64,000 nucleotides of DNA from Candidatus Hodarchaeota archaeon (GTDB taxonomy: Archaea > Asgardarchaeota > Lokiarchaeia > Sigyniarchaeales > SOKP01): contig JBHLKM010000008.1 in the NCBI GenBank assembly GCA_048886685.1, positions 96,001 to 160,000 of the forward strand, given 5' to 3'. Positions 47,817-64,000 of this stretch are shown piece by piece; the first letter of the stretch is position 1; every line of letters begins with the position of its first letter. The notes under the pieces are model-generated. The model saw nothing but the letters and a program-made list of their open reading frames with translations. It ran no database searches and was not told where the DNA came from. Made by a program: the position numbers and the translations under genes.

Positions 47817-49166
47817 CTATAGCCGAATATAGCGTTCTCTTTCCCAATCACTCACAACAACTCTATAAGCATCAAATTCCTCTAATTTAGCATAGTAGTA
47901 ATTCTTAAATGCTGTTTCACCAAATATTTCTTTCATTGATTCAGATTCTTTAAACTCCAATAACGCTTCATGTAAACTACCGGGTAGAGATACAATACCT
48001 TCCTTTTCCATTTCTTTACTGGAAAGATGGTAAACATTTCTATCTGTTGGTTCAGATATTTCAATGTCATCTGATAATACACCTTCCAAACCTGTAGTTA
48101 AAAGCACGGCAAACTGAAGATATGGATTTCCAGACGGATCTGGGCATCGAATTTCACATCGAGCGGCATTAGGTCTACCGTGAAAATCAGGTACCCTAAT
48201 CAGAGGTGACCTGTTACGAAATCCCCAAGCAAGATATACAGGGGCCTCATAACCTGGGACGAGTCTTTTATATGAATTTGGCCAGCTACTTAGAACAGCA
48301 CACATGGCTCTTGAATGTTTTAATTGACCTGCTATCCATTTCTTCATTGTTAGTGATATATTATCTTGATCGTTTTCATCATAAAATGCATTATTACCAT
48401 TTTTCCATAATGACTGATGTACATGCATACCTGAACCATTAATTCCATGAAAGGGTTTTGCCATGAAAGTTCCAGTAAGATTGTGGTTTGCTGCAACCGT
48501 TTTGACTATTGTTTTAATAGTTATTGTATTGTCAGCGGTATTCACAGCCTCATCATAACGAAAATCAATCTCATGTTGACCATAAGCAACTTCATGATGA
48601 ATACACTCAACATTAATTCCCATTGCATCACTATATTCTGCAATTGTATATCTTATCATCTCATTTTTATCATATGGATCATAATCGAAATATCCTCTCA
48701 TATCTGATGGTTTAAATTCTGCTTTAGTATCTGGAGTTAGTATAAAAAATTCCATTTCAGGTGCACAAAAATATTTATAACCATGTTCTTTTGCCTTATT
48801 TGTAGCACGCTGTAAAATATAACGAGGATCCCCCTCATATCGTTCACCATCAGGTTTATAAATATCACAAATAACTCGAGCAACCTTGTTTTCTTTTCGC
48901 CATGGTAAGAGGTAAAAAGTGCTCGGATCAGGAAGTGCAACTTTATCAGATTCCTCAATAGCTCCATATCCTGTTATCGAACTTCCATCAAAATTTTCTC
49001 CTACTTCAAAAATATCTTCAATTCTCTTAGAATTAATCTCAAATGATTTAATAATTCCATGAATATCTGTAAATTGAAGATAGATAAATTTAATCCCTTC
49101 CTCCTTAATCCTCTCTATCACAGCATCACACATTTCTTTCCTTTTTGGATTATCTTTTTCAATCAT
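47817..49166 (-). CDS. glnA: Glutamine synthetase type I (GSI-alpha-like)
   Basis: FDGSSI, PEMEFF, HHEVAYGQHEI, FMAKP, NGSGMHVHQSL, NSYKRLVPGYEAP, EIRCPD. Confidence 0.97.
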   Translation of the reverse strand: MIEKDNPKRKEMCDAVIERIKEEGIKFIYLQFTDIHGIIKSFEINSKRIEDIFEVGENFDGSSITGYGAIEESDKVALPDPSTFYLLPWRKENKVARVICDIYKPDGERYEGDPRYILQRATNKAKEHGYKYFCAPEMEFFILTPDTKAEFKPSDMRGYFDYDPYDKNEMIRYTIAEYSDAMGINVECIHHEVAYGQHEIDFRYDEAVNTADNTITIKTIVKTVAANHNLTGTFMAKPFHGINGSGMHVHQSLWKNGNNAFYDENDQDNISLTMKKWIAGQLKHSRAMCAVLSSWPNSYKRLVPGYEAPVYLAWGFRNRSPLIRVPDFHGRPNAARCEIRCPDPSGNPYLQFAVLLTTGLEGVLSDDIEISEPTDRNVYHLSSKEMEKEGIVSLPGSLHEALLEFKESESMKEIFGETAFKNYYYAKLEEFDAYRVVVSDWERERYIRL

Positions 49167-49192: not shown

Positions 49193-49564
49193 TTATTCAT
49201 AAATTAGAGATGAATCTTTTTTACTCCTCATAAACGTGGAAAAATCTTTTATGGTTAATGCTTTTCGAATGTTTTCTGAATTCAAATTTAACTTATTATT
49301 AGGTTCACAATTCCAGTCGTAGGATGCTCTTTCGTGAATTGCAAAATTATTGGGTTCTGGAGTTAAATCTTTAATTAGTTCACAAGTTTTACTTGTTTTA
49401 AACGCAATTGTATCAATACCTAAAAAAATTGAACAATTCCATTTATTATTGTCTCGACCTCCAAAATCTGTTAATCCACTAGATATAGAATAATCTTCAC
49501 ACTCCTGACAGATTTTACTATCATAACGGTACTTTTTTCCACAAACAGGACATTTTATTTCCAT
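49193..49564 (-). CDS. Uncharacterised Zn-ribbon protein, first gene of the glnA unit
   Basis: CPVCGKKYRYDSKICQEC, KWNC, YDWNC; ends LIYE; 26 nt upstream of glnA. Confidence 0.75.
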   Translation of the reverse strand: MEIKCPVCGKKYRYDSKICQECEDYSISSGLTDFGGRDNNKWNCSIFLGIDTIAFKTSKTCELIKDLTPEPNNFAIHERASYDWNCEPNNKLNLNSENIRKALTIKDFSTFMRSKKDSSLIYE

Positions 49565-49661: not shown

Positions 49662-49675
49662 GGGATTTAAACCCC
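49662..49675. promoter_or_regulatory. Candidate operator GGGA-N6-TCCC (variant GGGATTTAAACCCC)
   Basis: Lies between minus-strand TATA TTTATATA (49709-49716) and the Zn-ribbon/glnA unit. Confidence 0.6.
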
Positions 49676-49913
49676 ATTTTTTATCCTTTAACAATAAATG
49701 TGATCGTATATATAAAAATCTTTTGATCAATTATCTCAAATATTCATTTCTTGATAAAAATGTTAACAATATATTTAATAATCATTGAATAAAGTGACCG
49801 ATTGATTATTTAGAAATTTTTTGTCGTTATAGAGAATGATCATTTGAATATTTTTTATTGCTTTATTTAATCAAATGCATACTTTTATAATTATTTCATA
49901 ACTATCTATTAAT

Positions 49914-50417
49914 ATGGTTGTTAATTCTAAGATAGTTAACTTATCTGATTTGGATAAGAAGATCCTAACTAAACTAGACGAAGATGGAAGATTATCATTT
50001 CGTCATCTTGCTAAAGACTTAGAAGTAGGTTCACCTGTAACCATTAAAAATCATGTTGAGAATTTAGAAGAAAAGGGTGTTATTAAAAATTATGGAGTAC
50101 AGATTGATTATGAAAAACTAGGGTATGATATTATCGCTCTTATTGAATTAACGGTTTCAAAAGGTAAAATGCTTGAAGTTGAAAATAAATTAGCCCAGAA
50201 CCCAAACATTTTTGCTGTGTATGATATTACAGGAACATATGATGCTCTTATTCTTGCGAGATTTAAAACTAGGGCGGAGCTAAGCGAAATGATAAAAGAA
50301 GAAATACATACTTCTCCCTATGTTGAACGAACTAATACTCATATAGTTTTAAATATTATTAAAGAGGAATTTTCTTTTAAAAATTTGATAGAAAAAGAAG
50401 GAATAGAACTTCAATAG
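49914..50417 (+). CDS. Lrp/AsnC family transcriptional regulator
   Basis: LSDLDKKIL..LDEDGRLSFRHLAKDL HTH, LEEKGVI, VYDITGTYD. Confidence 0.95.
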   Translation: MVVNSKIVNLSDLDKKILTKLDEDGRLSFRHLAKDLEVGSPVTIKNHVENLEEKGVIKNYGVQIDYEKLGYDIIALIELTVSKGKMLEVENKLAQNPNIFAVYDITGTYDALILARFKTRAELSEMIKEEIHTSPYVERTNTHIVLNIIKEEFSFKNLIEKEGIELQ

Positions 50418-50439
50418 CAATCTAAAGCGAGGATACTGA

Positions 50440-50592
50440 AAACGTTCAACAAAAATCATTAATTATTAATACTAGGATTGAATCCAAAGATAAATGTTCA
50501 CTGAAATAAATCTTTATGTTTAAAATGTTCACAAAATCGAATATTCTGTAGACTATTTACTATTTTTAATATGAAAAAATATAAAATGTTCA
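50440..50592 (+). repeat. Four direct repeats AAAYGTTCA
   Basis: At 50440 (AAACGTTCA), 50492, 50523 and 50584 (AAATGTTCA); spacings 52, 31, 61 nt. Confidence 0.6.
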
Positions 50593-50777
50593 ATAACCTT
50601 ACACAAAACTTAAATAGAAGAAGATTTTCACTGAATAATTTTCATAAGAAACGTATAATATTAATAGATCTTTCATTTATATTTAACTATTCTTGTCGAA
50701 AGGTTTAGAAAAATTATGAAAAGACATAATTTCTTTCAATAAATTATAAATAGAAGTTCTCCTTTAGTAATAAATAA

Positions 50778-50791
50778 GGGAACTTGTTCCC
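50778..50791. promoter_or_regulatory. Candidate operator GGGAACTTGTTCCC
   Basis: GGGAAC-TT-GTTCCC palindrome 26 nt after TATA-like TTATAAAT (50744-50751). Confidence 0.65.
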
Positions 50792-50861
50792 ACAAATAAA
50801 AAAATAAGACATAAAAGAGGTAAAAAAAAATAAAAAAATTTTTTGAAAGGAGGTTTTAAAA

Positions 50862-51077
50862 ATAACAGTTCAAGAGTATTTTCGAACATGGGAAGAAATT
50901 TGCTTGGAAAAACTAAAAGAAATAGGAAGATGCTCAGCAGCCGAATGGGCTAGGGCAATGGGATATGGAGATAATCGTAATGGTGTGACAACAGTAATAA
51001 AACGAATAAAAAAAACTATGCCTGAAAGGTTAACGGTTTATTATAACACCAGGCCACGATTATATGAAGCTGTATAA
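50862..51077 (+). CDS. Small winged-helix-like protein, ATA start, absent from the ORF track
   Basis: SD AAAGGAGGT 7 nt upstream; (M)TVQEYFRTWEEICLEKLKEIGRCSAAEWARAMGYGDNRNGVTTVIKRIKKTMPERLTVYYNTRPRLYEAV*. Confidence 0.75.
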   Translation: MTVQEYFRTWEEICLEKLKEIGRCSAAEWARAMGYGDNRNGVTTVIKRIKKTMPERLTVYYNTRPRLYEAV

Positions 51078-51107
51078 ACAGAATATTAAAGTAGAGTGTG
51101 AATTAAG

Positions 51108-51620
51108 ATGCCATTAAAATGCCAAATTTGTGGAAAAGAATATTTATATGATGGAAAGATATGCCATAGCTGCGAAGAGAGTGCCATTACAAGTGGTTTG
51201 ACATCTCGAGAGGGATATGAACATAAGTGGAGATGTGATAATTTTATTGAACCGAATGGTTTAGTATTTGGAAGCAATTTAAATAAGAGAAGAGAGTTTA
51301 CATTAAAATTAATTGAATGTCCTGAATGTGGAGAAAAGTATTCCTATGGCAGAAAAATCTGTCATGTCTGTGAAGGTAATTTATTGCCGTTTGGAACGTT
51401 ATTCGATTCAGATCGCAAGGCACGTAGGTGGAATTGTGAAACAGTATTAGCTTGTATAGAGATATTGTCATCTAATTTAGATACTACTGAGACCATTGTA
51501 AAAGATGTACCCCATTTAGAAAAACTCGAGAAAACTGATTATAAATGGAATCAAGTTTCGACTATAAAATATAATAATGAACAAATAGATGGGAAGAACA
51601 AGCTTCTGATCTATGAATAA
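51108..51620 (+). CDS. Uncharacterised double Zn-ribbon protein, paralog of 49193..49564
   Basis: CQICGKEYLYDGKICHSC...KWRC and CPECGEKYSYGRKICHVC...RWNC; ends LIYE. Confidence 0.78.
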   Translation: MPLKCQICGKEYLYDGKICHSCEESAITSGLTSREGYEHKWRCDNFIEPNGLVFGSNLNKRREFTLKLIECPECGEKYSYGRKICHVCEGNLLPFGTLFDSDRKARRWNCETVLACIEILSSNLDTTETIVKDVPHLEKLEKTDYKWNQVSTIKYNNEQIDGKNKLLIYE

Positions 51621-51816
51621 ATATCATTTTTTAAATTCAAGATTATTAAAAAAAAGTAAAAATAATGAATATAACTCAGGTTAAAATTATGAGCATTGTA
51701 GTAGTAAAGAAGGTAGCTTATACATCTAATTAAAATTAAGTTATTTCTTTATGGTTTTACTTAATATTTTCATTTTATTTTAAAGTAACTTAATGTAATT
51801 AAAGAGGTTAAAAAAA

Positions 51817-53157
51817 ATTCAACAAGAGATAATGTTATTTCCAGGATGCGTGATAGTAAATAGATTTCCCTTTATTGAAGTCTCAATAAGGAAAGTATTT
51901 GATCATCTGGGAATATCTTTTACTGAAAATCCCAAATTTTCTTGTTGTCCAGATCCAAATGGCATTAAAAATTCTAATAAGTTATTATATTCTATTACCG
52001 CAGCTCGCAATATTGCTCTTGCTGAGTTAGAAAATAAAGCAATATTAACACCCTGTAACGGATGCTTTAGCACATTAAAAAAAGTCAAAAGTGAAATCGA
52101 TACAGATCACCATTTCAAAAGGAAAATCAATAGTTATTTAGATAAGATTGATATCAAGGTTGAGGGAAAGACTGAAGTATTCCATATGGTTGATTTCATT
52201 TTCAAATTTAAGAGAGACACTATCAGGGATAATTTAATATATCCACTGACGGGATTAAGAGTTGCTGTGCATTATGGATGTCATTTTCTTAGACCAAGCA
52301 ATAAAGTTCAGATAGATGATCCCTTGGAACCAGCAATCTTTGATGACTTAATTAAGGATTTAGGTGCTGAAAGTATAGATTATAATCTTAAAATGGATTG
52401 TTGTGGGGGAATTCTCGAGAGAGCTGGAAATTCAAGTTTATCATTAGAAATTATTAAAGCAAAATTAGAAAGCATGAAAGAAAAAGATGTGGATTGCATT
52501 GTTGTTTGCTGTCCTCAATGTTATATGCAATTTGATCATTTACAACAGGAAATGAAAAAATTTGACTTTAATTATGACATTCCTGTGCTATATTATTCAG
52601 AATTATTATCTCTCGCATTAGGGCTAGATCTCCGAGATATTATTAAAAAGCATCATAGAACCCAAGTTGATTCACTTTTTGAAAAGATCGATCTCATCCA
52701 AGAGAAAAATAAGGAGATAAGAAAATTCTTCGATCTTACCTTTTTACTTAAATGCTATTCATGTGGGGCATGCGATGACGATTGTATTATCTCAAAGATG
52801 ACCGAATTTAGTCCGAAGGCACTCATAGGCAATATTATCAAAGGAAAAATTGATCAGGTAATCTCAGATCCTTCTATTTGGATGTGTCTCGACTGTTATT
52901 TGTGTTATGAGCTTTGTCCGATGGGAATTGGCCTAATTGAAATTTTTACTATATTACGAAATTTAGCAAAAGAAAGAGGTTTTATCACTAAAGGATTTGA
53001 AAAGGAATTTAACGCTTTTTACAAAAAAGGAATAGTAGGAATGCCTTCGAAGGCAGCACGATCTAGAGTTGGATTACCATCACATATACCGGATGTTGGA
53101 GATTTGAAAGATTTGTTTAATGTAGTAGAAAGAGAGAATACAAAACTAGAGGAATAA
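51817..53157 (+). CDS. HdrB-HdrC fusion (two CCG domains plus 2x[4Fe-4S])
   Basis: FPGC, SCCP, PCNGC, HYGCH, DCCGG, CPQC, then CYSCGACDDDC and CLDCYLCYELCP; start is ATT 51817 (after GAGGT) or ATG 51832. Confidence 0.88.
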   Translation: MQQEIMLFPGCVIVNRFPFIEVSIRKVFDHLGISFTENPKFSCCPDPNGIKNSNKLLYSITAARNIALAELENKAILTPCNGCFSTLKKVKSEIDTDHHFKRKINSYLDKIDIKVEGKTEVFHMVDFIFKFKRDTIRDNLIYPLTGLRVAVHYGCHFLRPSNKVQIDDPLEPAIFDDLIKDLGAESIDYNLKMDCCGGILERAGNSSLSLEIIKAKLESMKEKDVDCIVVCCPQCYMQFDHLQQEMKKFDFNYDIPVLYYSELLSLALGLDLRDIIKKHHRTQVDSLFEKIDLIQEKNKEIRKFFDLTFLLKCYSCGACDDDCIISKMTEFSPKALIGNIIKGKIDQVISDPSIWMCLDCYLCYELCPMGIGLIEIFTILRNLAKERGFITKGFEKEFNAFYKKGIVGMPSKAARSRVGLPSHIPDVGDLKDLFNVVERENTKLEE

Positions 53158-53160
53158 TTT

Positions 53161-54351
53161 ATGAGATGGGAAAATTATACCTCATTACCAGAGCAGTATA
53201 GGAATCAGAGAGTATTCGATGGATGTGGGATTTCTGGATTTATAAATGTTGATGGGAGTAGGGTTAGAGGGGATAAAGTCATTGATATGCTATGTATTTT
53301 AAAGGAGAGGGAAAATGGATTAGGAGCTGGGTTTGCGGCTTATGGTATTTATCCAAAATATAAAAATTATTATGCATTTCATTTTCTCTTTGATAATATT
53401 TCTGCTAAAACAAAAGTTTTAGATTATTTAGATAATAAAGGTACAATTATCGCATCTGAACCAATTCCAACTAATACTCCTTTAAATGTTGATAATCCAC
53501 CGATTATTTGGAGAGCTTTCTTCGATCCTAATAAAAGTGGAAGTCTGGAACCAGACGAAAAAGTCGTACAGATTGTAATGGAAATAAATGCGAACATAGA
53601 AAATGCTTTTGTTATGTCTTCCGGTAAAAACATGGGTGTGTTTAAAGGAAATGGGTGGTCACATGAAATTGCCAATTTTTACAAAATTTCAGATTATGAC
53701 GCTTTTATGTGGTTAGCGCATTCTAGGTTTCCTACCAATACTCCTGGATGGTGGGGAGGTGCTCACCCCTTTAATTTATTAAATTGTTCAGTTGTTCATA
53801 ATGGAGAAATAACATCCTATGGAACAAATAGAAGGTACTTAGACTCGTTTGGATATAAATGCACTCTCTTCACCGACACAGAAGTCATTGCATATTTATT
53901 TGATTTATTATGTCGTAAGCATCAAATACCCTTATCTATCGCCACAATTGCTCTAGCACCACCATTATTTGGTGAGATCGAAAAGTTAAGCAGGAGAGAG
54001 CAACTAGTGCTTAAAAGTATAAGAGCAACTTATCGGAGCGCGATGTTAAATGGACCATTTTCAATTGTGGTTGGTTTTTCAAATCCAATTCCTACAATGA
54101 TCGGATTATCTGATAGAAAAAAATTAAGACCCCTTGTAATTGGAATTTCAGATGATGAAAACACTATATATATGAGTAGTGAGGAAGCATCTTTCAAACG
54201 ATTGACGTTATCTAATAGAAATTTCTCAATGAAAGAAATATGGCATCCCAAAAGTGGGTCAGCAACGATTGTCATGCTTGGTAAAGGATTGATAACAAAT
54301 GGCCTTGAAACACCAATAAAAAATTTAAAATTAACAATGATGGAGGCTTAA
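53161..54351 (+). CDS. Glutamate synthase amidotransferase (Ntn) subunit, GltB1/GlxB-like
   Basis: Propeptide then DG|CGISG, ERENGLGAG, HSRFPTNT, AHPF, VHNGEI, TDTEV. Confidence 0.92.
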   Translation: MRWENYTSLPEQYRNQRVFDGCGISGFINVDGSRVRGDKVIDMLCILKERENGLGAGFAAYGIYPKYKNYYAFHFLFDNISAKTKVLDYLDNKGTIIASEPIPTNTPLNVDNPPIIWRAFFDPNKSGSLEPDEKVVQIVMEINANIENAFVMSSGKNMGVFKGNGWSHEIANFYKISDYDAFMWLAHSRFPTNTPGWWGGAHPFNLLNCSVVHNGEITSYGTNRRYLDSFGYKCTLFTDTEVIAYLFDLLCRKHQIPLSIATIALAPPLFGEIEKLSRREQLVLKSIRATYRSAMLNGPFSIVVGFSNPIPTMIGLSDRKKLRPLVIGISDDENTIYMSSEEASFKRLTLSNRNFSMKEIWHPKSGSATIVMLGKGLITNGLETPIKNLKLTMMEA

Positions 54352-54354
54352 ATA

Positions 54355-55875
54355 ATGGCAATCGCGCATGAAATTATTAATTATTTTAAAGTTGATATAA
54401 ATAGAGAAGATTGTAAAAAATGTAAACGATGCATTAATCACTGTTCATTTGGAGTTTTGTCTTTTAATGGGGAACAAATAATTGCTGAGGATCATAAATG
54501 TGTTGCCTGTCAACGGTGTGCAGTTATGTGTCCTGGAAATGCGATAAGAATTGTTCAAAATGAGTCATTTTTGCCACCTCATGGACATTATACAAGAAAA
54601 ATTCGAAATATAATCTGGGCTCAATCTGGGAATGGAGGTGTTCTACTATCCGCAACTGGTAATGATAGACCAATCCGTTCAATATTCGATGATTTACTTC
54701 TAGATGCGTGCCAAGTTACTAATCCCTCTATCGATCCCTTAAGAGAAACAATTGAAACTAAGATAATTTTTGGGAGAAAACCAAAGAAATTAACTTTCAT
54801 CTCTCATCCGGATGATTTAGAAAAAATTTCTTTAAAAACCAACTTGATGCCGAATTTTGAGATTGATATGCCAATCATGGTAGGTCATATGTCTTTGGGT
54901 TCAATTAGTTATAATGCATGTCAGGCAATTTACCAAGCAGCAACTGAATTAAATATTGTAGCAGGATCAGGTGAAGGGGGTTTACATCCAGATTTCTATG
55001 AATATGCTCCGAATATAATTACAGAAGTTGCTTCTGGAAGATTTGGAGTGGATATTAATTATCTTAGCAATGCTGCGGCGTTAGAAATAAAGATCGGGCA
55101 AGGAGCTAAACCAGGGCATGGTGGTCACTTACCAGGTGAAAAAGTTAGCAGTTTAATCTCGCAAACCCGAATGATTCCAAAAGGAAGCGATGCGTTATCA
55201 CCTTATCCCCATCATGATATTTATTCAATAGAAGATTTAGCTCAATTGATAGCTGCCTTAAAAGAAGCAACAAGATATAAAGTTCCTGTAGGAGTAAAAA
55301 TAGCGGCAGTTCATAATTCTGCTCCGATTGCAGTTGGAATTGTTAGAGGAAGTGCTGATTTTCTTACTTTAGACGGATTCCGTGGTGGAACTGGTGCTGC
55401 TCCAAGAATTATTCGGGATCATGCAGGAATCCCCATTGAATTAGCCATAGCTGCCGTTGATGAAAGATTAAGACAAGAAAATTTACGTGAAGAAGTAACT
55501 TTAATAGCTGGCGGTTCAATTCGATATTCTGCTGATTTAATTAAGGCTATTGCTCTAGGCGCTGATGTAGCAATGTGTTGTATGCCAGTTTTAATTTCAA
55601 TGGGATGTAGAGTTTGTCAGCAATGCTTCAGGGGACTATGTCCCTGGGGAATTGCAACTCAACAAGAATATTTGGTAAAACGATTAGATGTTGATGTTGC
55701 GAAAAATAGAATAATTAATTTATTTCATTCTTGGAATGAAGAATTAAAGGAAGTTTTAGGAGCGATGGGAATTGATTCTATAGAATCGCTCCGCTCAAAC
55801 CGAGACCGATTAAGATATATAGGTCCAAATCCGCGTATTGCGGACATTTTAGGAGTAAAACATGCAGGTGAATAA
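54355..55875 (+). CDS. Glutamate synthase FMN subunit with N-terminal ferredoxin, GltB2/GlxD-like
   Basis: Two CxxCxxCxxxC motifs; MSLGS, GEGG, ASGRFG, EIKIGQGAKPGHGGHLPGEKV, PHHDIYSIEDL, CRVCQQCFRGLCPWGI. Confidence 0.95.
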   Translation: MAIAHEIINYFKVDINREDCKKCKRCINHCSFGVLSFNGEQIIAEDHKCVACQRCAVMCPGNAIRIVQNESFLPPHGHYTRKIRNIIWAQSGNGGVLLSATGNDRPIRSIFDDLLLDACQVTNPSIDPLRETIETKIIFGRKPKKLTFISHPDDLEKISLKTNLMPNFEIDMPIMVGHMSLGSISYNACQAIYQAATELNIVAGSGEGGLHPDFYEYAPNIITEVASGRFGVDINYLSNAAALEIKIGQGAKPGHGGHLPGEKVSSLISQTRMIPKGSDALSPYPHHDIYSIEDLAQLIAALKEATRYKVPVGVKIAAVHNSAPIAVGIVRGSADFLTLDGFRGGTGAAPRIIRDHAGIPIELAIAAVDERLRQENLREEVTLIAGGSIRYSADLIKAIALGADVAMCCMPVLISMGCRVCQQCFRGLCPWGIATQQEYLVKRLDVDVAKNRIINLFHSWNEELKEVLGAMGIDSIESLRSNRDRLRYIGPNPRIADILGVKHAGE

Positions 55876-56713
55876 AATTACTATAGTTAATGATATTGAA
55901 ACAAAAGATTTTGGAATTGGAATTGAAGAACCATTAGAGATAGATGCTGCTCCAAATGGAGATCCTCTCGATTATAGAGAATTAAATTCCATGATTCATA
56001 ATGCTGTTAATAATAATTGTAAGAAAATTGTGTTAAACAATGTTTGTGGGCAAAGATTTATAGGTGCTGCTTTACAAGGAGATGTAGAAATAAGTATTAA
56101 TGGGGTTCCTGGTAATGATTTAGGGATTTTTATGGATGGTCCAAGAATTAGTGTTTTTGGGAATTGTGAGGACCAATCTGGTAATACCATGAATCAAGGA
56201 ACAATGATAATTGATGGGGATGGAGGAGATGTTATAGGCTTATCTTCAAGAGGCGGGAAGATTTATATCAAAGGTGATGTTGGATATAGAGTTGGTATTC
56301 ACATGAAAGAATATGAAGACCATTTTCCAATATTAATAGTCGGTGGCACAGCTAAAGACTTTTTAGGTGAATATATGGCTGGTGGTAAAATTATTGTACT
56401 TGGTTTAAAAATTTCCTCAAATAGTAGTATTTCTGAGAGTCCACAGTCAATTTGTGGTACGGAATTAGGAACAGGGATTCATAGGGGTGCTATTTATCTT
56501 CGAACAGAAGAAAATGTAGAGGATAGGTTAGGTGTTGGAGCAAAAGTTTTCAATCTTTCAAAAGATGAACAAGAAGAAATTGATACTTACGTAGAAGATT
56601 TCTGTAAAACATTTAATGTTCCCCTAAGTGCTGTTGATAATAAACCTTTTAAAGTTATTAAACCAATTTCAAAAAGACCTTTTGGTGGAAATTATTGTAG
56701 CCAATTAATCTAA
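55862..56713 (+). CDS. Glutamate synthase beta-helix subunit, GltB3/GlxC-like
   Basis: GQRFIG, PGNDLG, GNTM, GYRVGIHMK, DFLGEYMAGG. Confidence 0.9.
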   Translation: MQVNKITIVNDIETKDFGIGIEEPLEIDAAPNGDPLDYRELNSMIHNAVNNNCKKIVLNNVCGQRFIGAALQGDVEISINGVPGNDLGIFMDGPRISVFGNCEDQSGNTMNQGTMIIDGDGGDVIGLSSRGGKIYIKGDVGYRVGIHMKEYEDHFPILIVGGTAKDFLGEYMAGGKIIVLGLKISSNSSISESPQSICGTELGTGIHRGAIYLRTEENVEDRLGVGAKVFNLSKDEQEEIDTYVEDFCKTFNVPLSAVDNKPFKVIKPISKRPFGGNYCSQLI

Positions 56714-56937
56714 TTTTTTCCCCTTTTTTTGAATTTGTTCATTTATAAACATTAAGCTTTAATATATGAATAACAACCCTTAAACATTGTTCAATTATAT
56801 TCATTTTTTCTAAAAAATATTGAAAAATTCTTATATTAATTTTTAAGATTATCGGATTTTTTAATTAAATATTAATAAATTGTTTAATTTCGATCCTAAT
56901 ATTTATTAATAATAAAACCTAATTTATTATAAAAAAT

Positions 56938-56951
56938 GGGAATACAAACCC
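56938..56951. promoter_or_regulatory. Candidate operator GGGAATACAAACCC
   Basis: One mismatch to GGGA-N6-TCCC; 28 nt after TATA-like TTTATTAA (56902-56909). Confidence 0.55.
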
Positions 56952-56988
56952 ACTATTTTTTTGAATACATTTGAAAAGTAGATTATTT

Positions 56989-58638
56989 ATGACAAAATTT
57001 TCAATGGATACTCATCAATCAAGCATGATAGGGTCTAGAACCAGAGTTGAGGATTCTTGTGAATCTGGTTTGTGCCCAATTTGTGTAGCAGATTGCCCTG
57101 TTTTCTGCGAAGTTTCAAAATCTGCTTTGCGCGGTCGCGAAGTGTTATATCCACGTAGAGAATTTTTTGGTAATTCTACAGCTGGTTCACCAAAAGATTT
57201 TGGGTTCTCTTATAGTGACTTTCAAATTCAATTTGAATGTCGAGGAGCTCAGGGAATTGAAGAAGATGAAGATAAAGTAATATTTCCTAATGTTAATATT
57301 AAAACTAAGTGGGGAAATATTGAACAAAAAAATCCATTTGTAATTGCTGGTTTAGGAAGCACTTACGTTGCAAAACGTAACTGGGATGGTTTAGCAATAG
57401 GAGCTGCATTATCAGGAGTAAGTACTACTGTAGGAGAGAATGTAGTTGGAATGGATCCTTATGCTAAATTCGCAAACCATGCCGTATATCCTAAAGTAGT
57501 TGATACACAGGATATGAAATATCGGGTTGAAAAATACAGAGAATTTTGGGATGGGAAGCATGGAGATATTATTGTACAAAAAAATGTAGAGGATACAAGA
57601 TTAGGTGTTTTTGATTATGTTATGTCTAATTTAGAAGTAAACTCACTTGAAATAAAATTTGGTCAAGGTGCAAAAGCAATTGGAGGCGAAGTCAGGTTAG
57701 AATCATTGGAGCGTGCCCAATTACTGCAGGAAAGAGGGTACCTTGTCTTTCCTGATCCTTCAGATCCAGTTATTATTGAACAGTGGAAAGAAGGATTAAT
57801 TCCAGACTTTGAAAGACATAGTCGGGTAGGACTATCTTCTACTGAGGATGTTTTAGAAGAAATTGATCAAGTACGCTCAAGCGGCGCAAAAAATATTTTC
57901 ATAAAAACTGGAGCATACAGACCAGCAGCAACAGCTTGGATAATAAGATTAGGTATTGAAGGAAAAGTAGATGGAATGACTTTTGATGGTGCTGGTGGAG
58001 GTACTGGTATGAGTCCAGTAAGTATGATGAATGAAGGATCAATTCCAACAGCCTATTTAGAAGCACTAGTAGTTGGATGTCTTGATATGATTAAAAAGAA
58101 AAATCCGAATGTATCTATACCCTCTATTGCAATAGCAGGTGGTATTGCTAATGAAACACAGATTTTTAAAGCACTTGCTATGGGTGCTCCTTATGTAAAT
58201 TGCATTGCGATGGCAAGAGCCCCAATTACCGCAGCTATGAAAGCAAAATTCATTGGAGAGGTTATTAATAAAAAGGAAGCCACACCTGCAATGCTTCGCA
58301 ATTTGGGTTTCTATAAGGACAAAGATCCTAAAAGTTTGACATTAAGTGAAGCTTTTGTTGAGTATGATAATTTGAATAGAATTTATAACGGAAATCGTAT
58401 TCCTCCTTCGGCGATTGGAGTTTACACTTATTTTACTAGCAAATTAGGTATAGGACTCCAACAACTATTAGCTGGAGTTCGAAAATTTAAGGCGAATTTA
58501 ATATGTCGAAATGATATTGCTTATATTTCTCAAAGAGCTAAAGAAGTATGTAAAAAATGGAATCTTGGAATTAAATCTCAAGAATCACTCGATTATGAGT
58601 TAGTAAAAAATGAGATTTATTCTGGGAATTATGATTAA
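56989..58638 (+). CDS. Glutamate synthase-related FMN-binding protein (second family)
   Basis: CESGLCPICVADCPVFCE, EIKFGQGAKAIGGE, DGAGGGTGMSP, IAGG; ATG at 56989. Confidence 0.85.
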   Translation: MTKFSMDTHQSSMIGSRTRVEDSCESGLCPICVADCPVFCEVSKSALRGREVLYPRREFFGNSTAGSPKDFGFSYSDFQIQFECRGAQGIEEDEDKVIFPNVNIKTKWGNIEQKNPFVIAGLGSTYVAKRNWDGLAIGAALSGVSTTVGENVVGMDPYAKFANHAVYPKVVDTQDMKYRVEKYREFWDGKHGDIIVQKNVEDTRLGVFDYVMSNLEVNSLEIKFGQGAKAIGGEVRLESLERAQLLQERGYLVFPDPSDPVIIEQWKEGLIPDFERHSRVGLSSTEDVLEEIDQVRSSGAKNIFIKTGAYRPAATAWIIRLGIEGKVDGMTFDGAGGGTGMSPVSMMNEGSIPTAYLEALVVGCLDMIKKKNPNVSIPSIAIAGGIANETQIFKALAMGAPYVNCIAMARAPITAAMKAKFIGEVINKKEATPAMLRNLGFYKDKDPKSLTLSEAFVEYDNLNRIYNGNRIPPSAIGVYTYFTSKLGIGLQQLLAGVRKFKANLICRNDIAYISQRAKEVCKKWNLGIKSQESLDYELVKNEIYSGNYD

Positions 58639-58691
58639 ATAAATTTTCTTCTTTTTACTAAAAAAAAAATAGAAATAGCAAAGTCTAAAGA

Positions 58692-60482
58692 TTAGTTCAT
58701 AAGACTTTCTAATTGATTAACAAAATCTTCATACTGTTTTATCCCGAGTACCCAAAAGTCTTTCTTTGTTACATCTAATCCTACAATCATTCCTAATTCT
58801 ACCGGAGAAATGCTGCCACCTGCAGCGAGAAGCTTCTTAAATTTGGGAACAAAGTCTTTACCCTCTTTTTTATAAGCTTGATAAAGTGCATAAACAAAAA
58901 GTTGAGCATAGACATAGGGGTAATTATAGAAGCGAAAATTTGGGATGAAGTAATGTTGCTTCATAGTCCATTCCCAATCCATCTCCTCAAACCATTCTAC
59001 AGAATCTCCGTATATTTTATCTCTACCAGCGCACCAATATTTCGATATAGTCTTACCATCTAGATTTTCACCTTTTTCTATCGCTTTATATAAATCATGT
59101 TCAAACCAATATCTCGCACTTACTTGAAATGCAGCTTGTCCCGCATCGTCAAGTACATAGGCTAGTATTGCCATTTTTTCTTCTTTTGATTCGGCTACTT
59201 CAAGAAGTAAATCGGTTAATAAAAGTTCTCCAAATATTGAAGCAGTCTCTGCTACACTATACCCTGGATGAATATTAAAGTATGTTTGTGCTTGGATGGC
59301 TAAATAATCATGGATTGCATGACCAAGCTCATGAATAAGTGTAAAAATTTCATTCATTTCTCCAGTATACGTCATAAGAATAAATGCAGATTTTCCTTTA
59401 TACCAAGAAGCGCAATTAGCTCCATTTCTTTTACCGTTTCTAGGACTTGCGTCAATATGATTTCGATTGAACATATCATTAAGATACTCCGCAAATTCCT
59501 TATCAAATTTTTCATTTGCTTGAATTACGAGTTCTTTAGCTTTTTCCCATAAATATTTTTTATGTGGGGCAATCGGAAGTGGAGCTCGAACATCAGCACA
59601 ATTTAACTTGGGAAAACCTAGGATCTTTGCTTTAAGATTCATATATCTACGATAAACATCAACACCTTCTTCTATTGCCCTCATCAAATTATCAATTATT
59701 TCTTGAGTTGTATCATTTACAATAAGGCTATCATGCATTGGGTTATCATATTTTCTTCTCTTCGAATTATTCACCCAATTTCCGCATATACTTCTCAAAG
59801 CCGTAGAAAAGATATACTCATCTTCTCCTAGCAAACCATAAATAGACTTATTTGCTGAAATTCTGGTATTCCTATCTGGGTGGTTGAGTAAAGCATTAGC
59901 CTCCCCATAAGATAGTTCTTTTTTCTCACCCTCAAATTCTACTACAATTTTTCTTGTATTCAACCATTTAGACTGTAGGGTGCTCCATGCCCTTACCCCA
60001 TATTGATCTTTTTCAAGAATTATTTGTTCTTCTATTTCAGAAAGATCATGAGGAAATTTTCTTTTAATTATCTCTAGAAGATGTTTATAATTAGATAGAA
60101 TCGGTTCATTGATTATGTCAGCATTGTTATAAACAAATTTGGCAATATCTAAGTCCAAAAAGGCTAGATCTTTAGCTATTTTTGTTGTAAAATCATCAAT
60201 ACGATTCTTTAAAGCCTCACTTTCTGGAATAGTCATATTAGCACTGAATAATCTATCCTTATAAAGATCTAATTCACCAAGTTCAGCTCCAAATTCTTCT
60301 TGTATTTTAAATAGTTCTAACAATTTCTTAGGTGTAAATTCAGGAGAATTAATTTTCCCTTTATAATTATTAACAAGTTCAGTAGCCTTACTAGAGAGGG
60401 TATCCATCCTTTCAGTGATTTTAGGGTCATCATGACCAACGAAAATTTCTGTTAAATCCCACGCGATTTCTTTTTCAGTCAT
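58692..60482 (-). CDS. pepF: Oligoendopeptidase F (M3B)
   Basis: WDL N-terminus, GKRNGA, HELGH, AETASIFGE, FYNYPY. Confidence 0.92.
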   Translation of the reverse strand: MTEKEIAWDLTEIFVGHDDPKITERMDTLSSKATELVNNYKGKINSPEFTPKKLLELFKIQEEFGAELGELDLYKDRLFSANMTIPESEALKNRIDDFTTKIAKDLAFLDLDIAKFVYNNADIINEPILSNYKHLLEIIKRKFPHDLSEIEEQIILEKDQYGVRAWSTLQSKWLNTRKIVVEFEGEKKELSYGEANALLNHPDRNTRISANKSIYGLLGEDEYIFSTALRSICGNWVNNSKRRKYDNPMHDSLIVNDTTQEIIDNLMRAIEEGVDVYRRYMNLKAKILGFPKLNCADVRAPLPIAPHKKYLWEKAKELVIQANEKFDKEFAEYLNDMFNRNHIDASPRNGKRNGANCASWYKGKSAFILMTYTGEMNEIFTLIHELGHAIHDYLAIQAQTYFNIHPGYSVAETASIFGELLLTDLLLEVAESKEEKMAILAYVLDDAGQAAFQVSARYWFEHDLYKAIEKGENLDGKTISKYWCAGRDKIYGDSVEWFEEMDWEWTMKQHYFIPNFRFYNYPYVYAQLFVYALYQAYKKEGKDFVPKFKKLLAAGGSISPVELGMIVGLDVTKKDFWVLGIKQYEDFVNQLESLMN

Positions 60483-60640
60483 AATAATAAATACCTTAAA
60501 AATTGGAAAATTTAAAAACCTTTACTACAGATTTAATTTAATACTTAAAGTCGGGGATGGAAAAAAGAAATAGAAATTATGTCTATGAAATGATCTAGGA
60601 TTATTTAATTATTTTATATTAAAATCAGTTAAAGTTAGAT

Positions 60641-62200
60641 TTATTCATATTCTATCGTTCCAGGGGGTTTATTGGTGATATCATATACGACTCTATTTAT
60701 TCCCCTAACCTCATTAATAATTCTTGTTCCTATTTTCTCTAATAAATCCCAGTTTAACTTAGCAAAATTGGCGGTCATGACATCAAGAGATTCAACAGCT
60801 CTAATCGCACAAATATATTCATATGTGCGGTAATCTCCCATGACACCAACAGTTTTTAGTGGTAAAAAAACACAAAAAGCTTGCCATAAAGCTTCATATA
60901 CTCCTCCTTTTTTAATTTCTTCAATTAAAATCTCGTCGGCTTCTCTTAAGATATTAAGCTTTTCTTTATTTATAGGACCTACAATTCTTACAGCCAAACC
61001 AGGTCCTGGAAAGGGATGTCTTGAGATTATTTCCTCTGGGATTCCGAGTTTTATTCCAATTTTTCTAACCTCGTCTTTATACAAGTTTTTTAATGGCTCG
61101 ATCACTTCTAGCATCATATTTTCTGGTAATGCTACATTATGATGTGATTTAATTCTTGCTGACGCCTTACTTGTTGCGCTTGTTTCCACTCGATCGGGAT
61201 AAATTGTTCCTTGGGCAAGGTATTTTATATCTGGATTTTCTTTTTCTAGTTCAATAGTTTTATTTTCAAATACCTCAATAAATGTATGACTAATTATCTT
61301 ACGCTTTTCTTCTGGATCCCCAATATTTTCAAGTCTATTTAAGAATAGTTCTTCAGCATCTACATAATGAAAATTTTTAAATTTCAATTTATCCTTGAAT
61401 GTCTTTTGGACTTCCATTTCTTCATTCTTCCTCAATAAACCATTATTTACAAACACGCTATGTAAGCGATCACCGATAGCTCTATGAATTAAAACAGCTG
61501 TTACAGAAGAATCTACTCCCCCACTTAACCCTAAAATCACTTTATTATTTGGGCCTATTTCGCTTTTAATTTCTTCAATAATACTTTCGATTAAACCTTC
61601 AACTTTCCATTCTTTTTTGCATTGAGCTATTTTAAATACAAAATTCTCTAAAATCTTATTACCTTTAGGAGTATTAACTACTTCGGGATGAAATTGAACA
61701 CCAAATAATAATTGTTCTTCATTTGAATAAGAAGCTACGGGGCAGGTTTCTGTTTTAGCTAAAGTTTTAAAACCCTTAGGTAAGGAAGTAACTTGATCAC
61801 CATGAGACATCCATACTATTTCTTCTCTATTTAATGAGTCGAAAAGAAGGTTTTTCTTTACAATAATAATATTTGTTTTACCATATTCCTTTGATTCTTT
61901 GGATTCCACCTTTCCTTTATGTTTATGTATAATTAAATGATGTCCATAGCAGATTCCTAAAATAGGGATTTTTTTTTCAGAAGTAAATTGAAATAATTCA
62001 TCACTTATAGTTGGACTATCTTTTTCATAGATACTATTCGGTCCTCCAGAAAATATTATAGCTTTAGGCATGATGCTTCTAATTTTGTCTAGACCAACAT
62101 CATAGGGAAAAATCTCTGAATATACTCCAAAATCCCGAATCCTCCTGGTGATTAAATGTGCATATTGCCCACCAAAATCCAAAACAATAACACAATCCAT
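60641..62200 (-). CDS. guaA: GMP synthase (glutamine-hydrolysing), fused form
   Basis: LDFGGQY, GICYG, QFHPEV, SGGVDS, IKSHHNV, HPFPGPGL, KPPGTIEYE. Confidence 0.98.
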   Translation of the reverse strand: MDCVIVLDFGGQYAHLITRRIRDFGVYSEIFPYDVGLDKIRSIMPKAIIFSGGPNSIYEKDSPTISDELFQFTSEKKIPILGICYGHHLIIHKHKGKVESKESKEYGKTNIIIVKKNLLFDSLNREEIVWMSHGDQVTSLPKGFKTLAKTETCPVASYSNEEQLLFGVQFHPEVVNTPKGNKILENFVFKIAQCKKEWKVEGLIESIIEEIKSEIGPNNKVILGLSGGVDSSVTAVLIHRAIGDRLHSVFVNNGLLRKNEEMEVQKTFKDKLKFKNFHYVDAEELFLNRLENIGDPEEKRKIISHTFIEVFENKTIELEKENPDIKYLAQGTIYPDRVETSATSKASARIKSHHNVALPENMMLEVIEPLKNLYKDEVRKIGIKLGIPEEIISRHPFPGPGLAVRIVGPINKEKLNILREADEILIEEIKKGGVYEALWQAFCVFLPLKTVGVMGDYRTYEYICAIRAVESLDVMTANFAKLNWDLLEKIGTRIINEVRGINRVVYDITNKPPGTIEYE

Positions 62201-62430
62201 TATTGAGAAACTCTTAACTTAGAATTGAAATATATCTTGAATTAATATTTTTTATGTTGAAATCGTTTCTTAATTATTTTTTAATAAGTTAAATAATCAA
62301 ATTAATTTTTCCAATTAGTCGTAGATTTTTTCTAACTTAAAATTATTTATTAAATAGATATTCAAAAAACCATTATAGCAAAAGAAATGATTGTAAATTA
62401 GATTTTCTTAAGAAATAATTATTAAAATAG

Positions 62431-62444
62431 GGGAAAAAATTCCC
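62431..62444. promoter_or_regulatory. Candidate operator GGGAAAAAATTCCC
   Basis: Exact GGGA-N6-TCCC in the divergent guaA / NfnA-like intergenic region. Confidence 0.55.
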
Positions 62445-62561: not shown

Positions 62562-63446
62562 ATGCCTTTTAAAATTTTAAAAAAAATCCAACTTGGAAAA
62601 AGTGGTACATTATTTGAAATTGATATTTACGCCCCGCTAATAGCTAAGAAAGCATTTGCAGGTAACTTTATACTTCTTAGAATTAATGAAACAGGGGAGC
62701 GAATTCCCTTAACAATTGCTGATTATGATACTGATAACGGAACATTAACTATCGTTTTTCAAGTAATTGGAAAAAGTACAAAACTTCTTTCTACTCTGAA
62801 TGTAGAAGATGAAATTTTAGATGTTGTTGGACCATTAGGTAATAGAATTCATACTGAAAAATATGAAAATTCTGTTGTTATTGTTGGGGGTGGTGTTGGT
62901 ATAGCAGAATGTTATCCCCAAGCAAAGGAATTGAAAAACATAGGAAATAACATTATATCGATAATAGGAGCAAGGACGAAAGATTTAATATTTTGGAAAG
63001 ATAAAATGGCTGCTGTAACTGATACATTAATTATATGCACTGATGATGGAAGTGAAGGAATAGAGGGATTTGTAACAGATCCACTTAAAAAGCTACTCAA
63101 AACTGAGAAAATAAGTGTTGTGATAGCGATTGGACCATTAATCATGATGAAGAACGTTTCTCTTTTAACAAATGGATTGAATAATTTGCCTAAAGTAAGA
63201 ACCTATGTATCTTTAAATACAATAATGATTGATGGTACTGGAATGTGTGGGGGATGTCGATTCTCAACTCATGATGGTAACATATATTTTGCATGTGTTG
63301 AAGGACCTGATGTAGATGGGCATATAGTTGATTTTGATAATCTTTTAAATCGTTCTAAAAGATTTATTAAACAAGAACAGGAATCTTTAGAAAATTTTGA
63401 ACATGAATGTAAAGCTCTAGAAAAAACAGGGGGAAATGCATCTTAG
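62562..63446 (+). CDS. NfnA/SudB-like FAD/NAD-binding [2Fe-2S] protein
   Basis: GERIPLTIAD, VVGPLG, GGGVG, TDDGS, DGTGMCGGCR, ACVEGP; ATG at 62562. Confidence 0.92.
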   Translation: MPFKILKKIQLGKSGTLFEIDIYAPLIAKKAFAGNFILLRINETGERIPLTIADYDTDNGTLTIVFQVIGKSTKLLSTLNVEDEILDVVGPLGNRIHTEKYENSVVIVGGGVGIAECYPQAKELKNIGNNIISIIGARTKDLIFWKDKMAAVTDTLIICTDDGSEGIEGFVTDPLKKLLKTEKISVVIAIGPLIMMKNVSLLTNGLNNLPKVRTYVSLNTIMIDGTGMCGGCRFSTHDGNIYFACVEGPDVDGHIVDFDNLLNRSKRFIKQEQESLENFEHECKALEKTGGNAS

Positions 63447-64000
63447 AATGGAGTTCCAAACACCATTAATAAAAGTTTTGCTTGAGAATAAGGCTAAGAT
63501 TTTAGAGGCAAAAAGATATGGCACTGAATCTGAATTTCAAAACTTCCTTAATTTAATAATTAATGCAGAAAAACAACGACAAGCTGTTTTAAAAGGGATA
63601 AAAGAAATAGGCTCTATAAATATCCAAAAATTAAAGAATAATTTGGGCATAACAGAAGAAGCCCTGATTTATAATGTAGAGTATTTAAAAGAATTAGGTT
63701 CTTTGGAATTTATTGGGGAAAAATCAAGATTTTTTCAAAAAATAATTGAAAAAAATGGTTATACTGGCTTATTTCCAAATGTTTCAATAATAAGAGACAG
63801 AAATCTATGTTGTGGTTGTGGTTTATGTGATTCTATCTGCCCTGTAAAAGCAATAAACTATACAGGTAATACTTTTGAGCTAAAGGAAGAAGTTTGTTTC
63901 AACTGTGGGTTGTGTTTTTCATGTTGTCCAAGATCTTTCTTCCCAAAAACATTGAAAAGAATTAAAAAAAATACTCATTTAAATTCCAAATTTTCAGAAC
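63436..64000 (+). CDS. Partial CDS: helical/wHTH-like N-domain plus 2x[4Fe-4S], FrhB-type N-terminus (truncated by window edge)
   Basis: MHLRMEFQTPL...; IIRDRNLCCGCGLCDSICP...CFNCGLCFSCCPRS, open to the window end; overlaps the upstream stop. Confidence 0.7.
   Translation, partial: MHLRMEFQTPLIKVLLENKAKILEAKRYGTESEFQNFLNLIINAEKQRQAVLKGIKEIGSINIQKLKNNLGITEEALIYNVEYLKELGSLEFIGEKSRFFQKIIEKNGYTGLFPNVSIIRDRNLCCGCGLCDSICPVKAINYTGNTFELKEEVCFNCGLCFSCCPRSFFPKTLKRIKKNTHLNSKFSE

Follow-up and report, generated by a model that had tools for sequence, protein, structure and literature searches.

Introduction

The regulator NrpR is released from DNA by 2-oxoglutarate and has nif, glnK-amtB and glnA among its targets. 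In Methanococcus maripaludis, its operator reads GGAAN6TTCC (PMC2723118). The present analysis concerns four palindromes of the form GGGA-N6-TCCC in a 64,000-nt stretch of DNA from a Loki-type Asgard archaeon, called the window throughout (positions 96001-160000 of contig C8 in the source genome G000, an assembly of 4.42 Mb, 31% GC and 47 contigs, scored at 100% completeness and 8.4% estimated contamination). Comparison of sequences across genomes indicates that these palindromes are genuine, shared and conserved operator-like sites that define a regulon. Its theme joins amino-acid fermentation to the glutamate/2-oxoglutarate node and is wider than nitrogen assimilation. It appears rather probable that the operators are occupied by a stand-alone, lineage-specific winged-helix (wHTH) protein of about 70 aa, acting as a dimer and encoded in the window at 50862-51077, and that genes of the glutamate/2-oxoglutarate node are coupled in this way. 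Below, other genomes are denoted G0xx, genera g1, g14, g18, g21, g22 and g23, and loci Lxxx.

The kind of system proposed is an ordinary one: a wHTH factor that regulates its own gene, a palindromic operator and a metabolic regulon of modest size. Its likeness to the NrpR system lies in a 14-bp repeat of 4-N6-4 build near the starts of glnA and assimilation genes, which is reused across genes of the carbon/nitrogen node and occupies a likely repressor position at some promoters (PMC2723118). In contrast to NrpR, the regulon here consists of glutamate-synthase-like, glutamate dehydrogenase (GDH)-linked and amino-acid-fermentation genes and not of nif or glnK-amtB, and the candidate binder is a protein of 70 aa without 2-oxoglutarate-sensing domains.

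Three further groups of regulators invite comparison. TrmBL1 (Tgr), the factor behind the Thermococcales glycolytic motif, is likewise an archaeal wHTH factor with a palindrome common to a metabolic regulon, and it represses from sites downstream of BRE/TATA and activates from sites upstream, the geometry proposed here for the wHTH versus the iorB promoters (PMC4706686). It differs in being large, with a sugar-binding domain and the TrmB domain PF01978, and its motif is unrelated to the present one; the PF01978 profile found no match at E values up to 1 among 21 members of the protein family studied here, termed mini-wHTH. OxsR, a TrmB-like protein of Haloferax volcanii, consists, like the mini-wHTH protein, of hardly more than a single winged-helix domain, and it activates or represses according to position, as is proposed here; OxsR is thiol-based, and the mini-wHTH family has an invariant C12, from which a thiol switch here would be pure speculation (PMC9426492). 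OxsR differs in its CG-repeat motif and oxidative-stress regulon, and no sequence relationship between it and the mini-wHTH proteins was detected. Finally, the MarR/ArsR repressors provide the best structural matches (BpsR, AdcR, MarR and CzrA) and also the precedent of an operator within their own promoters whose half-sites are separated by one turn of the helix. The mini-wHTH protein differs from them in being the core only: it is without the helices at both termini through which MarR proteins dimerise, a defining trait of that family, and it has no Pfam match to MarR (PF01047) or ArsR at E values up to 1.

Four palindromes and their relatives in the genome

An earlier, sequence-only reading of the window had described four 14-mers, each followed by an A, in AT-rich spacers, and all four are found in place. 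Site 1 (GGGATTTAAACCCC, 49662..49675) lies in a divergent spacer, with a Zn-ribbon gene and then glnA on the minus strand, and an Lrp/AsnC gene on the plus strand; it is 97 nt from the Zn-ribbon start. Site 2 (GGGAACTTGTTCCC, 50778..50791), the presumed autoregulatory operator, is 70 nt 5' of the ATA that probably starts the mini-wHTH gene, the ~70-aa ORF that leads a series consisting of a double zinc-ribbon (DZR) gene, an HdrB/C-like gene and three split glutamate synthase (GOGAT) subunits. Site 3 (GGGAATACAAACCC, 56938..56951) precedes by 37 nt a gene of the FMN-binding glutamate synthase family, GltS2. Site 4 (GGGAAAAAATTCCC, 62431..62444) occupies the spacer between guaA (minus strand) and an NfnA-like gene (plus strand), 117 nt from the NfnA-like start, and the genes that follow are a 911-aa FrhB::GltD/NfnB-like fusion and GDH.

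Intergenic and coding DNA were separated with a simple longest-ORF gene map (83% coding). Across the window, GGG-N8-CCC has nine matches versus 4.0 expected, and the five other than sites 1 to 4 are inside coding sequence, so the earlier remark that no other intergenic region carries such a site holds; it also holds for the entire 172-kb contig C8. One of the coding matches, GGGAGCGAATTCCC at 62695..62708 within the NfnA-like coding sequence, scores 21.5 bits and is probably a chance occurrence or a species-specific second site; no GGG-N8-CCC occurs inside the orthologous genes of G020, G022 and G023. Elsewhere in G000, intergenic matches are mostly tRNA T-arms, and four more intergenic sites look like those of the window. 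These are at C10:86952, upstream of iorB-iorA of indolepyruvate oxidoreductase (IOR; the alpha subunit scores 701 bits, over the equivalog cut-off) and the alpha subunit of an ADP-forming acyl-CoA synthetase; at C11:46021, upstream of both ATP-citrate lyase (ACL) subunits and then isocitrate dehydrogenase (IDH); at C9:104384, upstream of another acyl-CoA synthetase alpha-like gene; and at C46:530, upstream of a second copy of the 70-aa ORF.

Alignment of the sites extends the palindrome into its flanks (A-T...A-T) and gives a consensus of 16-18 bp, aATGGGA(A/T)-N4-(T)TCCCAt, with half-site centres 10 bp apart, a spacing that would suit a symmetric wHTH dimer. GGGA/TCCC is fixed in all 38 unique sites upstream of wHTH genes, with palindromic flanks and unconserved adjoining DNA.

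How far such a pattern could arise by chance or from composition in AT-rich spacers was judged from several counts. The 0.75 Mb of intergenic sequence (24% GC) in G000 contain exact GGGA-N6-TCCC seven times versus 0.45 times in mononucleotide shuffles (maximum 2), and spacers of 0-14 other than N6 yield 0-4 intergenic matches each; in coding DNA no spacer is rarer than N6 (12 matches versus 16-33 for the others). A weight-matrix scan of the same genome, using a matrix partly trained on the sites that it then scored, returned eight intergenic sites and one coding site at 20 bits or more, the next intergenic site scoring 18.2 bits. A one-mismatch 17-mer scan of five genomes was too noisy without gene context. 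Over the whole genome the 14-mer is found 18 times in G022 versus five for a reversed-pattern control, while G020 (16 versus 14) and G023 (15 versus 13) show no excess. The bare 14-mer thus only modestly exceeds other spacers, which would favour chance, and the genome-wide count taken alone is a moderate signal; the strong evidence is that the sites cluster, have palindromic flanks and are conserved in other genomes. On contig C8, the four intergenic copies all fall within 12.8 kb, and the position is kept at orthologous promoters in dozens of species, with the core invariant amid diverged DNA. Chance is refuted by these conservation data and is the least credible of the explanations considered.

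Conservation at orthologous promoters and extent of the regulon

The close comparison set consisted of G020, G022 and G023, which belong to the same genus as G000, have the HdrBC-GOGAT arrangement in common with it and encode proteins that are 57-91% identical. Counting G000, the motif stands before the wHTH-led GOGAT operon in 4/4 close genomes and before GltS2 in 3/3 (site 3 has its orthologues in G022 and G023). The guaA/NfnA spacer carries it in three of four, being kept in G020 and G023 and missing from G022, and the Zn-ribbon/Lrp spacer in two of four: G022 has it 34 nt from the Zn-ribbon gene, and G020 and G023 do not. An additional copy in G022 lies 36 nt 5' of the second Zn-ribbon paralogue. 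Beyond the window, the motif precedes iorB at a fixed 94 nt in all 11 loci for which upstream DNA was available. The ACL site is at 131 nt in G020 versus 132 nt in G000, is weak in G005 and is absent from G022 and G023, and the C9 acyl-CoA synthetase site is found in about 11 of the 28 wHTH-containing genomes. In three genomes of other families, the HdrBC-GOGAT operon has no such intergenic site, in keeping with the absence of the mini-wHTH gene from these genera.

At orthologous promoters of related genomes, the palindrome persists in intergenic DNA that has otherwise diverged. Best conserved among the targets are the wHTH/Zn-ribbon/FMN-glutamate-synthase-like operon and the operon of indolepyruvate oxidoreductase and acyl-CoA synthetase, with ACL/IDH as a further target in some genomes only. 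Conservation at orthologous promoters therefore backs the original proposal of a shared operator-like element that defines a regulon. Calling it a nitrogen regulon is too narrow, given the IOR, acyl-CoA synthetase and ACL/IDH targets and the fact that glnA is reached only through the Zn-ribbon gene. Similarly, the tie that had been drawn between the NfnA/FrhB-like genes and nitrogen assimilation survives as a link to glutamate metabolism, since the site is kept in three of four genomes and GDH follows, within a regulon that is broader than nitrogen assimilation.

The mini winged-helix protein and the competing candidate binders

The candidate regulator P0001, of about 71 aa, is encoded on the plus strand at 50862..51077. 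An AF2 model built from 21 sequences (pLDDT 86) has three helices and two strands in a winged-helix arrangement (H8-19, H24-31, H38-50, E55-58 and E65-68). In Foldseek, all of the best matches listed are winged-helix nucleic-acid binders (MarR/BpsR, AdcR, AspA, RbkR, CzrA and Z-alpha domains), at TM scores of 0.6-0.73 and with weak E-values (at least 0.015). Searches of Pfam, NCBIfam and PDB sequences returned no significant family, the sole Pfam match at E up to 1 being a weak HTH_18, obtained with 8 of the 21 members. Of the 23 genomes sampled from the genus, 20 encode a homologue, versus none of 16 from other genera of the order, and over 398 genomes the homologues are limited to one family of the phylum (86/132 versus 0/266 elsewhere); a profile search of 1.84 billion representative proteins gave 36 matches. 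The mini-wHTH proteins are a new, lineage-restricted family, and C12 is invariant among them.

In G000, G003, G017, G011 and G023, the mini-wHTH gene has no in-frame ATG, GTG or TTG after the upstream stop, and other members of the genus start it with ATG. A GGAGG Shine-Dalgarno sequence, a spacer of 8 nt and an ATA are kept (window 50849-50864; loci L098-L101), so that the gene probably starts at a non-canonical ATA.

The palindrome is closely tied to this gene. Each of the 21 first-round loci with upstream sequence has one GGGA-N6-TCCC 76-107 nt before the wHTH match, and the motif also precedes the gene in 12 of 12 further loci of genus g1, in all five 'class B' copies of genus g22 and in the one copy from g21. 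Taken over 65 species-representative loci, 44 carry it within 200 nt upstream, 76-114 nt before the wHTH coding region. A fixed-distance link to a gene with a DNA-binding fold, here seen in about 44 species, commonly marks autoregulation, and two features generic to an autoregulated wHTH factor are present, namely the winged-helix fold and a conserved inverted repeat at the own promoter, the latter not in a paralogous subfamily.

Several observations weigh against binding of the operators by this protein. To the modest genome-wide excess of the bare 14-mer in G000 and the lack of excess in G020 and G023 is added the fact that 21 of the 65 loci are without the motif, being members of the paralogous wHTH subfamily (…HNALAKVIRRIVND…) or of other genera; upstream of that subfamily and of the g14, g18 and g23 copies the count is 0/15. 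Autoregulation is consequently not universal in the wHTH family. Co-variation of recognition helix and operator could not be shown: an alternative palindrome was sought upstream of the motif-less HNALAKVIRRIVND subfamily as a sign of co-evolution, and none was found. Nor is any module for dimerisation or ligand binding evident in the 70 aa of the protein. Moreover, genomes of the genus that lack the wHTH gene also lack GltS2 and IOR, and the C9 acyl-CoA synthetase, a clade-specific target, is without the motif in both wHTH-less genomes and likewise in 17 wHTH-containing ones, a pattern compatible with wHTH dependence or its absence. Lastly, 12 of the 21 loci have an Lrp gene immediately 5' of the module, in many cases flanked by glnA and wHTH. 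As to their genomic setting, members of the HNALAKVIRRIVND subfamily (L159-L168, L173 and L158; genus g22) are found in a different gene context, and many g22 genomes carry both subfamilies.

The last of these points raises the possibility that the palindrome is the operator of the neighbouring Lrp/AsnC-family regulator (49914..50417, plus strand; PF01037/PF13412, NF041396), with the mini-wHTH operon merely its best-conserved target. This Lrp is a bona fide member with a ligand-binding domain, which would supply the missing sensor, and haloarchaeal Lrp is known to regulate glnA. Yet the gene is non-adjacent in 9 of the 21 loci, whereas the link between wHTH and motif is complete in the same set (21/21). 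Characterised archaeal Lrp boxes are AT-rich palindromes of 13-15 bp and not G/C-clamped as GGGA-N6-TCCC is, and a separate conserved element 5' of the BRE, ATGTTTAGA, is a better candidate for an Lrp site. Lrp is thus an unlikely binder of the palindrome, though it may act as a second regulator. The sequence-only reading had offered the local wHTH or Lrp protein as possible binders; the former is now the best candidate, while the claim of the latter suffers from its partial adjacency.

Alternatively, the operator could be bound by some other, unlinked transcription factor of the lineage, the wHTH protein having a different role. The existence of wHTH paralogues without the motif speaks for this, as does the inferential basis of wHTH-motif binding. 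Such a scheme needs a second lineage-restricted factor of the same phyletic range, and the fixed-distance association across about 44 species points instead to autoregulation; we regard it as decidedly unlikely.

The third candidate is NrpR itself, for which the sequence-only reading had supposed a homologue encoded elsewhere, acting on a variant operator. The 14-bp length and 4-N6-4 symmetry are indeed those of GGAAN6TTCC (PMC2723118), and the sites lie near glnA and GOGAT. The likeness ends with the half-site, which is GGGA and not GGAA, the core GGGA-N6-TCCC being invariant in the 38 sites. The search for the NrpR domain PF01995 was negative in the 100%-complete G000, while Methanocaldococcus jannaschii and Methanosarcina acetivorans were positive as controls. 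Likewise, neither PII/glnK (PF00543) nor Amt/amtB (PF00909) was found in G000, with positive controls in 13 and 14 reference genomes. These three results, no PF01995, differing half-sites and no PII or Amt, all but rule out NrpR as the regulator, and an NrpR-type operator is accordingly an exceedingly improbable account of the palindrome. The dimer of the mini-wHTH protein is retained here as the favoured binder.

Promoter geometry and proposed mechanism

All promoter and start-site positions given here are predictions from sequence. The earlier suggestion that TATA-like boxes lie some 26-33 nt ahead of three of the sites is roughly borne out at site 2, where TTATAAATA (50744..50752, plus strand) ends 26 nt 5' of the palindrome, and at site 1, where TTTTTATATATA, read on the Zn-ribbon/glnA strand, ends some 31 nt ahead of the palindrome. 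For site 4 the search gave no convincing TATA. A BRE/TATA-like sequence, cgATAAATTTATAAAt, is conserved at the wHTH promoters of most relatives and begins 42 nt 5' of the motif, the BRE/TATA as a whole lying 35-42 nt 5' of it. Given this position and the distance from TATA to start that is common in archaea, the start at wHTH promoters is predicted some 4-12 nt 5' of the motif, and the operator would lie just beyond the start, at about 10-25 nt downstream. Archaeal factors bound in such a position block the recruitment of RNA polymerase (PMC4706686), and an effect that turns from repression to activation with position has been described for two archaeal wHTH factors, TrmBL1 (PMC4706686) and OxsR, which has a single domain (PMC9426492).

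Some 15 nt 5' of the BRE/TATA of wHTH-type promoters, and about 52-64 nt before the motif, is another conserved element, aATGTTTAGAtttt (L101-L117 and, ahead of site 3, window ~56870-56890). A further factor may bind there, the neighbouring Lrp being the obvious candidate.

The situation at iorB is different. In 11 genomes, the DNA 5' of the motif is unconserved, and about 60 nt on its 3' side are nearly invariant and contain a TATA-like sequence. The near-invariant block, TCATGTATAAGTTAATTAAAAACTAGTAATTAAGTAGAACTAG (C10:86966-87030, L001/L179, with 10 orthologous loci), may be a promoter plus a leader element. The location of the operator upstream of this conserved TATA-like block suggests that it precedes its promoter, in a position from which such factors can activate.

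The same predicted geometry gives some room to the idea of an element that works in the transcript, as a 5'-terminal RNA hairpin (GGGA...UCCC) with a role, for example, in stability or translation control. At wHTH promoters, the motif is predicted to fall within the first ~25 nt of the mRNA, and some copies, such as site 2, could form stems of 5-6 bp. Pairing of the inner positions shows no excess over independent columns in the 38 sites (5:10, 24 versus 21.2 expected; 6:9, 16 versus 12.8; 7:8, 14 versus 12.0), and nine sites have T5 together with T10. The flanks are symmetric as DNA, the iorB site is seemingly 5' of the TATA-like block and no Rfam family matches. A role in RNA is therefore judged highly improbable.

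On the favoured account, a dimer of the wHTH protein would sit on two GGGA half-sites one helical turn apart. It would most likely repress its own gene together with the downstream Zn-ribbon and glutamate-synthase genes by blocking the recruitment of RNA polymerase, and at the iorBA/acyl-CoA-synthetase operon, where the operator is upstream of the TATA-like block, it may activate instead. The set of functions coupled in this manner would comprise GOGAT, the FMN-GltS-like protein, the NfnA/FrhB-GltD-like pair with GDH, ACL with IDH, IOR with ADP-forming acyl-CoA synthetases, and the Zn-ribbon protein with glnA. For a wHTH protein that lacks a sensor, input could come from the Zn-ribbon proteins that always lie beside it, from Lrp as a frequent neighbour or through Cys12, which is invariant. 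A bolder proposal, which is best seen as possible and somewhat short of probable, is that the ~70-aa wHTH family of one Loki-type Asgard family is a master switch of the glutamate/2-oxoglutarate/amino-acid-fermentation node, which would stand in for the NrpR/PII systems missing from the one genome searched, would act in a position-dependent manner and may sense through the Zn-ribbon proteins or a cysteine.

Genes and operons beside the sites

The gene assignments at the four sites are supported by Pfam and NCBIfam matches. On the minus strand, the glutamine synthetase gene glnA (47817..49166; Pfam/NCBIfam) lies 27 nt 3' of the gene for a zinc-ribbon protein, a DZR paralogue (49193..49564), and is probably co-transcribed with it. 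The double zinc-ribbon protein itself (DZR, 51108..51620, plus strand) is the constant downstream neighbour of the wHTH gene. Both Zn-ribbon proteins are assembled from one module, KCxxCGKxYxYDxKICxxCE..SGLT..KWxC, with L(I/L)IYE at the C terminus. In most of the loci studied, the gene after wHTH encodes one of these two paralogues. They may serve the regulator, or glutamine synthetase (GS)/GOGAT, as partners or sensors.

Further along the plus strand are the gene for an HdrB/HdrC-like protein with CCG and 4Fe-4S modules (51832..53157), which has orthologues only in G020, G022, G023 and a few other genera, and the split archaeal-type glutamate synthase (53161..56713), made up of GATase_2 (53161-54351), FMN/Glu_synthase (54355-55875) and GXGXG (55862-56713) parts. 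GltS2, of 549 aa (56989..58638, plus strand), follows directly after wHTH-DZR in most genomes of the genus, where the usual order is [glnA(-)] [Lrp(+)] motif-wHTH-DZR-GltS2. In G000, HdrBC-GOGAT seems to have been inserted between DZR and GltS2, and GltS2 to have retained a copy of the ancestral promoter, motif included. The ESM Atlas offers only generic labels, namely FMN-binding glutamate synthase family and zinc ribbon.

The NfnA-like protein is a FAD/NAD-binding Fe-S protein of PRK06222 type (62562..63446, plus strand). It is followed on the same strand by the 911-aa FrhB::GltD/NfnB-like fusion (63436..64000, running off the window), which contains a TIGR01316 module, and by GDH (C8:162353-163603), 182 nt after the fusion. 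The fusion of an FrhB-type F420-binding module to a GltD/NfnB-type module between an NfnA-like gene and GDH (C8:159436-163603) is an unusual electron-transfer architecture.

The small contig C46 (4.7 kb) repeats the order glnA - Lrp - (WD40 gene) - motif - wHTH - DZR, with the motif 81 nt 5' of the second wHTH copy. This copy is 60% identical to that of the window and is nearer to the majority type of the genus. Given the 8.4% estimated contamination, C46 may be a contig from a co-binned relative instead of a true second locus.

Implications

In the literature searched, no experimentally defined triad of transcription factor, operator and regulon was found for Asgard archaea, a lineage where almost nothing is known about regulation. 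The system described here is compact, with a protein of 70 aa and a site of 16-18 bp conserved across dozens of species. It also provides a functional context for a number of poorly understood genes, including those of the FMN-binding 'glutamate synthase family' protein, the HdrBC-like GOGAT partner, the FrhB::GltD fusion and the paired Zn-ribbon proteins. Overall, it indicates how an amino-acid-fermenting Loki-type archaeon that has no PII, Amt or NrpR may coordinate the synthesis and breakdown of glutamate with aromatic amino-acid fermentation and with citrate/2-oxoglutarate metabolism.

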